This document shows, piece by piece, positions 19,752 through 54,510 of a stretch of DNA of 64,000 nucleotides. Where the stretch lies: contig JAHQWH010000189.1 of the NCBI GenBank assembly GCA_029856105.1, forward strand, positions 54,263 to 118,262, given 5' to 3'. The notes below the pieces were generated by a model. It made no database searches and was not told the origin of the DNA. It saw only the letters and a program-made list of their open reading frames with translations. Position 1 is the stretch's first letter; each line of letters opens with the position of its first letter. The translations under genes were made by a program, and so were the position numbers. The DNA comes from Promethearchaeia archaeon. Its GTDB lineage: Archaea; Asgardarchaeota; Lokiarchaeia; Sigyniarchaeales; SOKP01.

Positions 19752-20365
19752 ATGGGAAGGAGAAAAAGAAAGCAACAATCTTATAAAAGAGTCAAAACAG
19801 TCCCCAAAATTTTTACTTGCCCAAACAGGTAATTATGGTTTTCCCATTTACCTTGGATTGTGGGGAAAAGGCAATAAAAGTAGAAAATTTACGAAAAAGT
19901 GTTATAGCTACAGTGAAATGTGGTCATTGTGGTTTAACAAAGGAAGTTCTGGTTAATTCCATATCAGAACCTGTTGATGCTTTTGGAGATTTTATTGATA
20001 TTCATTATGCTGATCAAGAACTTCAGAGATTAGAAAAACGCATTGAGAAATTAATAAAACAAAACGAATGGGGGGAACTTGCATTATCCTACTCAATTTT
20101 ATCGGATATTTGTAAACTTAAAGTTGTTCAAGCTTTAGAAGACGAAGATAAAGTAGATCTTGATGAGGTTAATAAATGGAAAATTAAAGTTGAAGAATAT
20201 AAAAGGCTTGAAAAAGATGCTCTACTTCAATTAGACACGCTTGAATTGGAAAAGGGTATTAGAACAGACGACGAATCTTTATTTTCAGAGCACGATGAGA
20301 GTGATATGAAAAAAGAAAAGAAAATTGAAGATATCTTTGACGATCCTGGTTTTCTTGAATTTTAA
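19752..20365 (+). CDS. elf1: Transcription elongation factor Elf1 with C-terminal extension; split gene join(19752..19826,19859..20365), 193 aa
   Basis: Exon 1 MGRRKRKQQSYKRVKTVPKIFTCPN + exon 2 CGEKAIKV...KCGHCGL...EPVDAFGDFID gives the Elf1 basic N-terminus, both CxxC knuckles and the EPVD..(G)DFID motif. Confidence 0.9.
19827..19858 (+). other. 32-nt bulge-helix-bulge intron in elf1 mRNA
   Basis: CCAA/TTGG 4-bp central helix, 3-nt bulges ACA and ATT, intron stem GGTAA/TTACC + ATGG/CCAT, exon stem CTTGC/GTGGG + TTTT/AAAA; removal restores the frame and CPNC. Confidence 0.88.
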
Positions 20366-31592: not shown

Positions 31593-33065
31593 ATGAATGT
31601 AATTAAGATTGATGAGAACATTTACGAAATACCGCCAAAAACTTTAATGGCGCGTGTAGAAGGCAAAATCGCGAAGTTTCAAATGAAAGTGCCGGTACAT
31701 ATTTATGCGAACGAGTACATATTGGAAAAGATCAAGAACGACAGAACGCTTGATCAGATTAGCAACGTTGCTTGTCTTCCAGGAATACAGAAGCATGCAA
31801 TTGCGCTCTCCGATGCTCATCAAGGATATGGATTTTGTATAGGGGGTGTTGCTGGAACTGACGCCGAATCGGGTATGATTTCGCCGGGGGGTGTAGGATA
31901 CGATATTAATTGTGGTGTAAGGTTATTAAGGACAAACCTTCACCTTAAAGACATCAATAGCTCAATTCCCAGTTTATTAAATGTTATTTTTAAGAATATA
32001 CCATCAGGTTTAGGAAGTAAAGGTAAATTAAATATAAGTTATTCAGATTTAGATAATGTATTAGATAATGGTTTGAATTGGGCTTTAGAAAATGGTTATG
32101 CGATTGAAGAGGATATATTGCACTGTGAAGAAAACGGTTTTTTAAAGGATGCTAATTCAAAAGTGGTTTCCCAGAAAGCTAAGCAGAGGGGGTTAAAGCA
32201 ACTTGGTTCTTTAGGAAGTGGCAATCATTTTATAGAAATCCAGAAGGTTGATAAAATCTACAATGATTCTATCGCAAAAAAATTAGGAATTTTTGATAAG
32301 GATCAAATAACAGTTATGGTTCATACAGGGTCGCGAGCTCTTGGTCATCAAGTATGCACCGATTCTTTACGAAATGTCGAACAGGCAATGAAAAAATACG
32401 ATATCAAAGTTCCTGATCGCGAATTAGCTTGTGTACCAGCTGATACTCCCGAAGCAAAAAATTATTTAAGTAGCATGGCGTCTGCTGCAAATTTTGGGTT
32501 CAACAACCGTCAATTAATTACCCATTGGTTAAGACAATCTTTTCAAGATTATTTTAGAAAGAGTTTAGACGAGCTAGACTTTAAATTAATTTATGGTGTA
32601 TGTCATAATATTTTAAAAATAGAGGAACACGAAGTTAATGGTAAAAAAATGAAATTAAATGTTCATAGAAAAGGAGCAACCAGAGCTTTTCCACCAGGAC
32701 ACCGAGATCTACCGCAAGATTATAAAAATATTGGTCAACCAGCTTTGATTCCTGGTACTATGGGATCAGCTTCCTACTTATGCGTTGGAAGGCCAAAAGC
32801 GATGGATCTTTCTTTTGGATCCACCGCTCATGGATCTGGTAGAGTAATGTCAAGATCCAAAGCTAAAAAAATATATTGGGGTTCTAAAGTTAAAGAAGAT
32901 TTAAAAAATAGAGGAATAATTGTTAAAGCTGCTTCACCTAAAATAATTGCTGAGGAAGCTCCAGGGGCATACAAAGATATAGATCAAGTAGTACAAGTAA
33001 GTCAAGACCTTGGAATCATAGAAAAAATTGTAAGGTTAATCCCAATAGGGGTTGTAAAAGGTTAA
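31593..33065 (+). CDS. rtcB: tRNA-splicing ligase RtcB
   Basis: DAHQGYGFCIGG, GGVGYDINCG, GSGNHF, HTGSR, HRKGAT, HGSGR, EEAPGAYKD; ATG at 31593 preferred over TTG at 31464. Confidence 0.97.
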   Translation: MNVIKIDENIYEIPPKTLMARVEGKIAKFQMKVPVHIYANEYILEKIKNDRTLDQISNVACLPGIQKHAIALSDAHQGYGFCIGGVAGTDAESGMISPGGVGYDINCGVRLLRTNLHLKDINSSIPSLLNVIFKNIPSGLGSKGKLNISYSDLDNVLDNGLNWALENGYAIEEDILHCEENGFLKDANSKVVSQKAKQRGLKQLGSLGSGNHFIEIQKVDKIYNDSIAKKLGIFDKDQITVMVHTGSRALGHQVCTDSLRNVEQAMKKYDIKVPDRELACVPADTPEAKNYLSSMASAANFGFNNRQLITHWLRQSFQDYFRKSLDELDFKLIYGVCHNILKIEEHEVNGKKMKLNVHRKGATRAFPPGHRDLPQDYKNIGQPALIPGTMGSASYLCVGRPKAMDLSFGSTAHGSGRVMSRSKAKKIYWGSKVKEDLKNRGIIVKAASPKIIAEEAPGAYKDIDQVVQVSQDLGIIEKIVRLIPIGVVKG

Positions 33066-33110: not shown

Positions 33111-33548
33111 TTAAATATCAAATACTATATCAATTATGGTGCTTGCGTGTTTTTCTACTATATTCATAAAGGAATAAGTTATAGCCTTAACTTCAATTCC
33201 TATTTCGTGTTTATCCAAATCGAATTTTTCACCTTTTAGAGTAGCTTGCAACTTGTAATTATCGTTGAATTTTTCAATTTTACTTACATAGATTTGACTA
33301 AAAACAAGCTCATCTACATCAAAAATATACAAAAATTCCGAGAGAAAATCAAATAATAGGGCTTCTTTATCCTCAGCCTTAATTGTTATTTTTTTTTCGA
33401 TTTTAGGAGTTATTTTTTTTAAGTCTGGCGTTATAGTCGCCATTAAACTATAAGCGGTTTGCGAAAAGGCTTCTTCTAATGATGAGCCCCAACTTCTTAC
33501 CTGAACATCTGCAGTATGCTCTCTAAACTCAAATCCGGCTTTTTTCAT
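33111..33548 (-). CDS. Archease (RtcB cofactor)
   Basis: EHTADV, EVKAITY, C-terminal FDI; adjacent to rtcB. Confidence 0.95.
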   Translation of the reverse strand: MKKAGFEFREHTADVQVRSWGSSLEEAFSQTAYSLMATITPDLKKITPKIEKKITIKAEDKEALLFDFLSEFLYIFDVDELVFSQIYVSKIEKFNDNYKLQATLKGEKFDLDKHEIGIEVKAITYSFMNIVEKHASTIIDIVFDI

Positions 33549-44269: not shown

Positions 44270-44368
44270 AGCCTCTGGGGGGAGTTGAACCCCCGGCCTA
44301 CTGATGATTCGAACCAGTTGATTGGTTGATTTTACGAATCAGTCGCTCTACGACTAAGCCACAAAGGC
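44270..44368 (-). tRNA. tRNA-Thr(CGT) with 27-nt canonical 37/38 intron (44306..44332)
   Basis: GCCTTTG/CAGAGGC acceptor stem, discriminator U; BHB TTCG/CGAA with bulges TAA and TCA; spliced loop TTCGTAA. Confidence 0.93.
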
Positions 44369-53973: not shown

Positions 53974-54510
53974 TTAATCTTTCTTTTTTGTTATAAAAGC
54001 AATATCACCAAGAGAGGAACCACGAGATTTTTTCATATATTTGCTTTGTTTGGCACTTGGTTCAATTTCATCTACTTTTTTTAGAAGCGTAATATTGTAG
54101 ACTTTTTCTATTTTTTTTGCTAATTTTATAGTTGGTTCAACTTTTCCGGCTTCGATTCTTCTTAGTAAAGAAGGTTTCTCGTTTAGTTTTTGAGCAAATT
54201 GATCTTGATTAAATCCACGGGAATTTCGAGCGTTTCTAATTCTTTTCGCGTAATCATGAACAATTTCAATATTTTCATCGCCATCTCTTTTTGGTACAAA
54301 TTTTTTCACGGGACTCTTAAGTTTAACATATGTCTGCTGTTGAGAATCAGATTTTTTAGGTTCACTCCTGATTTTTTTACCATATTGGGCACAACTTTGA
54401 CACACAGTAATTTTTGCTTCTTCTATTAAAACTTTTTGTCCTTTTCCCCATATTTTACCTCCACATATGGGGCATTCCTTATCAAATTGATTCGATACTT
54501 TTTTTGACAT
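53974..54510 (-). CDS. mbf1: Multiprotein bridging factor aMBF1
   Basis: CPICG...VCQSC..YG Zn ribbon; HTH IRNAR...QDQFA..LNEK.S.LRRIE.G; SLGD. Confidence 0.95.
   Translation of the reverse strand: MSKKVSNQFDKECPICGGKIWGKGQKVLIEEAKITVCQSCAQYGKKIRSEPKKSDSQQQTYVKLKSPVKKFVPKRDGDENIEIVHDYAKRIRNARNSRGFNQDQFAQKLNEKPSLLRRIEAGKVEPTIKLAKKIEKVYNITLLKKVDEIEPSAKQSKYMKKSRGSSLGDIAFITKKKD

Follow-up and report, generated by a model that had tools for sequence, protein, structure and literature searches.

The stretch of DNA analysed here (the window; 64,000 nt, or 64 kb) corresponds to positions 54,263 to 118,262 of contig JAHQWH010000189.1, in the assembly GCA_029856105.1 of a Promethearchaeia archaeon. On its forward strand it carries elf1, the gene for the transcription elongation factor Elf1, in two pieces that lie in different reading frames and are separated by 32 nt. 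The original prediction held that these 32 nt are a tRNA-type intron, bordered by a motif of the bulge-helix-bulge (BHB) type and removed from the elf1 mRNA. The first piece, exon 1 (19752..19826), opens with ATG 19752 and provides 25 codons for MGRRKRK...PKIFTCPN, including the first Cys of the first CxxC zinc knuckle; in this frame the next codons are AGG and the stop codon TAA (19830-32). The second piece, exon 2 (19859..20365), begins with TGT 19859, the knuckle's second Cys, and consists of 168 codons for CGEKAIK...CGHCG...EPVDAFGDFID, with the second CxxC (CGHC), followed by TAA at 20363-65. The element in between (19827..19858; 32 nt, phase 0) contains that first TAA as well as an ATG at 19835.

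Excision of 19827-19858, with a cut after the second base of each bulge, creates the codons TGC CCA AAC|TGT GGG and thereby the peptide CPN|CGEK. The predicted spliced junction is CTTGCCCAAAC|TGTGGGGAAAAG, and the predicted product has 193 aa, with Cys23, Cys26, Cys46 and Cys49. The four-Cys CxxC...CxxC zinc ribbon is complete solely in this spliced product. Exon 2 alone matches the Pfam family PF05129 (Zn_ribbon_Elf1) with 36.3 bits, at a curated cut-off of 29.8. Exon 1 occupies positions 1-27 of the profile and exon 2 positions 28-76, so that the two pieces abut exactly. An intronless orthologue that is 95% identical (P0005) matches positions 1-76 end to end, with 65.6 bits, and aligns across the whole zinc ribbon with eukaryotic Elf1 chains of solved structures, e.g., 8tvy_O and 6ir9_M. 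In this alignment the intron site lies within the first CxxC, and the first Cys pair aligns with that of 8tvy_O. The closest public products are named as Candidatus Lokiarchaeota or Promethearchaeota metagenome-assembled-genome (MAG) proteins, or as 'transcription elongation factor Elf1', names that agree with the Asgard host proposed from the sequence. The genome contains no second elf1 above the Pfam cut-off. Nor does it contain a second copy of the intron 32-mer, and we therefore rejected the notion that the intron is a repeated or mobile element.

An elf1 RNA that stayed unspliced would yield only a 26-aa peptide, or an N-terminally truncated product without the first Cys pair. Public gene calls for intron-bearing alleles begin at the intronic ATG (19835 here), which gives 176 aa, and about half of the public products fetched for this clade start within the intron and lack the first zinc-ligand pair. 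The expectation that gene callers would mis-call elf1 was thus borne out, although the false start is this ATG and not TTG 19817, as had been proposed. The call for one close relative is of another kind: in P0004 (a Joint Genome Institute (JGI) contig; 198 aa) it runs from an upstream ATG into the exon-2 frame, with about 28 nt of exon 1 missing, so that either the allele is damaged or the assembly is wrong here.

The sequence around the junction forms a strict BHB. The outer, exon-exon helix is made up of 19811..19820, conserved coding sequence for IFTC, and 19860..19869 in exon 2, which codes for CGEK; the pairs are 19811-14/19866-69 and 19816-20/19860-64 (5 + 4 bp), and three of the five inner pairs are G-U. 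The central helix is formed by CCAA in exon 1 (19821..19824) and TTGG in the intron (19853..19856). All four of its pairs are Watson-Crick, and it stands between two 3-nt bulges on opposite strands (strict 3-4-3), namely ACA (19825..19827), with the predicted 5' cut at 19826/19827, and ATT (19857..19859), with the predicted 3' cut at 19858/19859. The intron hairpin (19828..19852) consists of the inner helix GGTAA 19828-32/TTACC 19848-52, the helix ATGG 19835-38/CCAT 19844-47 and a 5-nt loop at 19839-43 (5 + 4 bp). These reading frames, helices and bulges agree to the nucleotide with those originally described, and the cut rule applied, with scission between bulge residues two and three, matches that given for the cbf5 intron in PMC2738675. 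Strict BHB geometry occurs in 649 of the ~5.8 million combinations of position and length in the window (~1e-4), so chance is unlikely to have placed one at the only combination by which the orthologous junction is restored. Thermodynamic folding of the 70-nt region gave no significant difference from shuffled sequences (z = -0.29) and is not used as support.

To place this element in context we read 62 related elf1 loci, drawn from the genus of the study genome, two other genera of its family in which inserts are found (g16 and g22), the genera g21 and g23, and a sister family. Within the genus, 42 genomes were searched and the 5' part of elf1 was readable in 37. An insert is present at the boundary of codons 25 and 26 in 16 of these 37 loci, with a length of 32 nt in five genomes, 30 nt in nine, and 28 nt and 31 nt in one each. 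The inserts are homologous, sharing a TAA..ATGG-loop-CCCATT core, and none of the 16 can be translated through, since either TAA or TGA follows within three codons or the frame is shifted. The other 21 loci have no insert, and their sequence is that of the predicted join, e.g., CCA AAT|TGT GGG in L004. The insert is therefore absent from the intronless orthologues with nucleotide precision, and the interval 19827-19858, the CPN|C junction and the 193-aa product put forward in the original prediction are supported by comparison with these genes.

In a maximum-likelihood tree of the spliced coding sequences of the genus, one clade (support 92/93) unites 15 insert-bearing and three intronless genes. 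Within it, the intronless L004 is nested, at 100/100 support, among the five 32-nt alleles. This position points to a precise loss of the intron in L004, which as judged from sequence is its simplest reading; overall, the elf1 tree requires at least four changes. Intronless alleles are also found on two metagenome scaffolds (L047 and L048), where the protein is 95% identical and elf1 has the same neighbours. We also considered a link to a homing enzyme, which found no support at this locus: both ORFs (open reading frames) next to elf1 (366 aa and 579 aa) lack a Pfam family, and the 366-aa neighbour also flanks the intronless L048.

The same codon boundary is occupied outside the genus. In g16 all four sampled loci (L060-L063) carry 30-nt inserts, and in g22 all 14 (L064-L077) carry inserts of 31-32 nt; 13 of the 14 g22 loci were picked for a short open frame, so these counts are no estimates of prevalence. 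The single sampled loci of g21 and g23 have no insert, nor has any of five genomes of the sister family. In total, 34 of the 62 loci carry a 28-32 nt insert at this boundary; the remaining loci carry none, and read there as the predicted join. The g16 and g22 inserts bear little sequence resemblance to those of the study genus, and the shared site points either to a single ancient intron that has diverged fast or to a favoured position at which introns were gained more than once. In these two genera, three of four central pairs and a 4-bp outer helix are found in 17 of 18 inserts, with two of four central pairs in L077. If a few bases leave the exact splice site ambiguous, it is always the register at the codon boundary that gives the best BHB. 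Each of the 34 inserts blocks translation, through either a stop in frame or a shift of frame. In 33 of them a stop in the exon-1 frame falls within the first three codons, in several at the very first (TGA, TAA), so that unspliced RNA would give only a 25-27-residue peptide; the 28-nt insert (L006) is the sole exception and blocks translation by a frameshift. At the position of the elf1 start codon, three g16 genomes have TTG and L063 has ATA.

If nothing joined exon 1 to exon 2, it would be an isolated piece of 25 codons. Yet it has a ratio of nonsynonymous to synonymous variation (pN/pS) of 0.068 in the 16 insert-bearing congeners, compared with 0.057 in intronless genomes; 15 of its 18 variable codons vary only synonymously, and its length is always exactly 75 nt. 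In the alignment of the 16 genus alleles, 85.4% of the cells assigned to helix pairs form standard pairs, vs. 33-59% after a shift of the partners by one to three columns, and in the intron hairpin the proportion is 91.9%. Changes on both sides are seen in four helix pairs, three of them in the hairpin. They include an A-U to G-C double change in the central helix, between exon and intron (L007), and a first inner pair that is G-C or A-U; loop positions vary freely. The outer helix has at least 3 bp in all 16 alleles. Inserts at one position with compensatory changes in BHB pairs were what the original prediction had proposed to look for in an alignment of elf1 loci.

The outer helix is itself conserved coding sequence, in which TTTTCAC (Ile-Phe-Thr) faces GTGAAAA or GGGAAAA (Gly-Glu-Lys), corresponding to 19811-19817 and 19863-19869 in the window. 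The same exon-exon helix is present in intronless genes, e.g., L009 and L039. It is possible that this helix is a pre-existing 'proto-splice site', and its presence in such genes may be why the site is used in several genera.

The enzymes that such an intron would call for are encoded in the genome. Two proteins with EndA domains, 200 and 201 aa long, are encoded at G000:C107:10900-11502 and C12:8929-9534; both combine an N-terminal domain with one of catalytic type. At what we take to be the site of the catalytic triad, one of them keeps the His, in ...EHSAF..., and a Lys further on, and the other is without that His. Two EndA-domain proteins of ~200 aa fit the alpha and beta subunits of an (alpha-beta)2 enzyme, the broad-specificity type of EndA in Asgard archaea (PMC5829648). 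The gene for the RNA ligase RtcB, the presumed joiner of the exons, lies at 31755..33062 on the forward strand (PF01139, 558.8 bits; G000:C191:86017-87324), and that for archease, the activator of RtcB, at 33114..33533 on the reverse strand (PF01951, 143.1 bits; G000:C191:87376-87795). The two genes adjoin and converge, and they lie 12 kb downstream of elf1.

As the comparison across about 60 related genomes indicates, the insert must be removed from the mRNA. We hold with high confidence that 19827-19858 is a tRNA-type (BHB) intron in the coding sequence of the only elf1 gene of this genome. The proposal of such an intron in elf1 mRNA is supported by the intronless joins, the 28-32 nt inserts at the same site, the compensatory changes, the selection on exon 1 and the splicing enzymes; very probably, EndA and RtcB carry out its splicing. 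Within the pre-mRNA, the outer helix would form between exon 1 and exon 2, and the 4-bp central helix between the final bases of exon 1 and those of the intron; the rest of the intron would fold into a hairpin, leaving two 3-nt bulges. A heteromeric (alpha-beta)2 EndA would then cut after the second base of each bulge. RtcB, with archease, would join the exons and probably circularise the intron. The outcome would be a restored TGC CCA AAC|TGT GGG, and an Elf1 of 193 aa whose CxxC...CxxC zinc ribbon is intact.

Several observations weigh against this conclusion. The spliced junction of the intron's own clade, which the original prediction had proposed to look for in RNA data, had no match in an exact-pattern scan of JGI contigs. 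That of the 30-nt clade matches just five JGI contigs, 2-17 kb in length, which we read as genomic intronless alleles, and the nearest 193-aa products come from METAG scaffolds that also carry the neighbouring genes. No RNA-derived spliced elf1 sequence was found in the JGI contigs or the public products looked up, and splicing is for this reason inferred rather than shown. That is, we infer the cleavage and ligation of the elf1 pre-mRNA from an anatomy, a conserved site, a match to intronless genes, a pattern of selection, a covariation and a set of enzymes that are each observed. Three short contigs do encode near-full-length products of 190-193 aa, and are not assignable to an RNA or a DNA library. 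A genome-wide screen for strict BHBs that would rescue ORFs, of the kind originally proposed for finding other BHB-broken genes, yielded 120 sites, vs. 102-141 for decoy bulges of 1, 2, 4 or 5 nt. Because there is no excess over the decoys, the screen gives no independent support for a genome-wide system; it is too unspecific, since it makes no use of homology data.

The structure, too, is not uniform across the inserts. The description as a strict BHB holds for the 32-nt and 28-nt forms, the only ones among the 16 genus alleles with a perfect 4-bp central helix; the 30-nt and 31-nt forms carry an A.A mismatch in this helix beside bulge 1 (a relaxed motif), and the g16 and g22 inserts also have a central-helix mismatch. 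Moreover, in its 70-nt context the window's copy has an alternative fold of -15.0 kcal/mol, vs. -11.9 to -12.7 kcal/mol for the BHB fold. Across the 32-nt clade this alternative, in which the loop region of the intron pairs with exon 2, has an advantage of 0.8-2.3 kcal/mol. For the 30-nt clade, folding without constraints gives a minimum-energy structure that is essentially of the BHB type. We considered regulated splicing through competing pairings and rejected it, in view of the small margin, the confinement of the competing fold to the 32-nt clade and the BHB-like fold of the 30-nt clade; the competing fold is probably incidental.

Foremost among the alternatives to a spliced intron is an insertion that is tolerated unspliced, such that the gene yields a 26-aa peptide together with a 176-aa protein, initiated at ATG 19835 or at a TTG two codons before exon 2, or else the truncated protein alone. 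The 176-aa product is the one that gene callers predict, and an in-frame ATG or TTG is available two codons upstream of exon 2 in all 16 genus alleles. However, that start is a by-product of the central-helix strand and the bulge (T/A-TGG-AT), and the truncated protein would be without two of its four zinc ligands. Exon 1, moreover, is under the same purifying selection as in intronless genes and always 75 nt long. A separate peptide would show the same selection, but would leave the conserved BHB geometry and the compensatory changes unexplained. We regard a tolerated insertion as improbable.

It might also be supposed that the mRNA remains uncut and is recoded, by a change of frame at the heptamer C CCA AAC (19820-26) stimulated by the downstream hairpin, or by a ribosome hop. 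The heptamer fits the pattern X XXY YYZ, the hairpin lies within a few bases of it, and a -1 shift there enters the exon-2 frame. Yet the product would hold 11 extra residues in its CxxC knuckle, and the heptamer is simply the run of Cys-Pro-Asn codons, present in intronless genes as well. A -1 shift suits the 32-nt form only: the 30-nt form is in frame, with TAA or TGA, and the 28-nt and 31-nt forms need a different shift. The same frame change is thus not conserved across homologues, as it would be in programmed -1 frameshifting, and the existence of the 28-, 30- and 31-nt forms rules out a common recoding mechanism, whereas BHB excision fits all 34 inserts. For hopping there is no pair of take-off and landing codons, since the codon just before exon 2 is GAT, GAC or GAA and does not match AAY. 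Recoding is very unlikely.

We give an equally small chance to the idea that elf1 is a pseudogene in this lineage and the insert mere debris. It is true that the reading frame is broken in the DNA. But both exons are conserved (pN/pS ~0.07), the gene is open on both sides of the insert in 34 independent assemblies from three genera, and no frame-breaking mutations were seen elsewhere in the gene in insert-bearing relatives. This is also the only elf1 of the genome, in a group in which elf1 is present in 38 of 41 relatives sampled. Lastly, an assembly or sequencing artefact, for which nothing specific speaks, has a negligible probability and was discounted, as the identical 32-mer recurs in five independently assembled genomes, variants of it occur in 29 more, and the insert is also found in the many public contigs that give the truncated 176-aa product.

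Returning to the BHB intron, we noted two further loci in the genome at which related elements may be present. At G000:C10:60290-60319 (+), and also on C26 (L052:990-1019), there is a strict BHB of 30 nt, whose outer helix has 7 bp and whose inner helix has 10 bp. Excision would fuse an ORF of 280 codons (DUF2229, CoA-enzyme-activase type) with one of 116 codons, and for the latter there is a weak match only, to the C-terminal end of HGD-D. We list it as a candidate for a further mRNA intron. The second locus, at 44270-44368 (-) in the window, is a single Rfam tRNA that spans 99 nt on a model of 71 positions, implying an insert of ~27 nt. ARAGORN reports no tRNA anywhere in the 64 kb, and standard tRNA finders seem to miss the intron-bearing tRNAs of the window.

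Splicing of a coding sequence by the archaeal tRNA-splicing enzymes is in print for one gene family only, cbf5 of Crenarchaeota. Between close relatives, the elf1 intron shows gain and divergence as well as precise loss; the Elf1 protein is systematically cut short by standard gene callers; and the elf1 substrate, at ~70 nt, is compact material that could be tested directly with recombinant EndA and RtcB from Asgard archaea. Tentatively, and as a proposal to which we stop a little short of giving our assent, elf1 could be one case of a general mRNA-splicing layer in this family. EndA, RtcB and archease would then routinely process dozens of coding transcripts, and mini-introns would arise repeatedly where conserved coding sequence is already able to form an exon-exon helix, to be lost precisely via copies of spliced RNA. 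Were this so, the closest prokaryotic relatives of eukaryotes would need their tRNA-splicing capacity to express a core transcription factor, and that capacity could tune its expression. If other genes are likewise interrupted, non-spliceosomal mRNA splicing would be regular in these organisms, which would bear on annotation and on the tolerance of intron-containing genes before the spliceosome.

Among systems already described, the splicing of cbf5 is the nearest. Work on the BHB intron of this gene is reported to go back to Watanabe (2002) and Yoshinari (2006). The gene encodes a pseudouridine synthase, and the intron interrupts its pre-mRNA in Crenarchaeota of the Desulfurococcales and Sulfolobales (PMC2738675, Yokobori 2009); the paper on HVO_1309 names it as the sole earlier case of a BHB intron in an archaeal mRNA (PMC7714728). 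In both cbf5 and elf1, a short intron lies in coding sequence, has BHB-type borders and is cut, or in elf1 is predicted to be cut, between bulge residues two and three. Further points of likeness are the need for a hetero-oligomeric EndA, which for elf1 is proposed, as well as lineage-specific gain, precise loss and misprediction by gene callers. The elf1 intron differs in its Asgard host and in its position, which is phase 0 within a zinc knuckle rather than in the codon for the catalytic Asp. The copy in the window is also a strict BHB, whereas that of cbf5 is unconventional. Finally, cbf5 splicing is proven by cDNA and in vitro cleavage, whereas that of elf1 is deduced.

HVO_1309 of Haloferax volcanii is likewise a case in which the archaeal splicing endonuclease acts on an mRNA and not on tRNA or rRNA; unlike elf1, it has its intron in the 5' untranslated region (UTR), where no reading frame is interrupted, it is processed by a homodimeric alpha'2 enzyme, and its splicing has been shown experimentally (PMC7714728). 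The tRNA introns of Asgard archaea share with the elf1 intron the host group, the motif and presumably the enzymes. They show repeated gains at BHB-capable sites, and their size class matches the tRNA insert in the window; the study that describes them is concerned with tRNA genes only and leaves mRNA unmentioned, the word 'protein-coding' appearing once, for neighbouring genes (bioRxiv 10.64898/2026.10.13.758758). A more distant parallel is found in XBP1/HAC1 of eukaryotes, where IRE1 together with RtcB or Trl1 removes a very short coding intron (26 nt in XBP1) by protein-catalysed, non-spliceosomal splicing that changes the frame, with RtcB joining the exons in metazoans. IRE1 recognises twin stem-loops, not a BHB cut by EndA, and the reaction is a stress-regulated switch. 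In the full-text literature searched, the only BHB introns of archaeal mRNAs are those of cbf5, in coding sequence, and of the HVO_1309 5' UTR, with none for elf1 or for Asgard mRNAs. We class the elf1 intron with that of cbf5, as a member of the same kind for which both the gene and the phylum are new.
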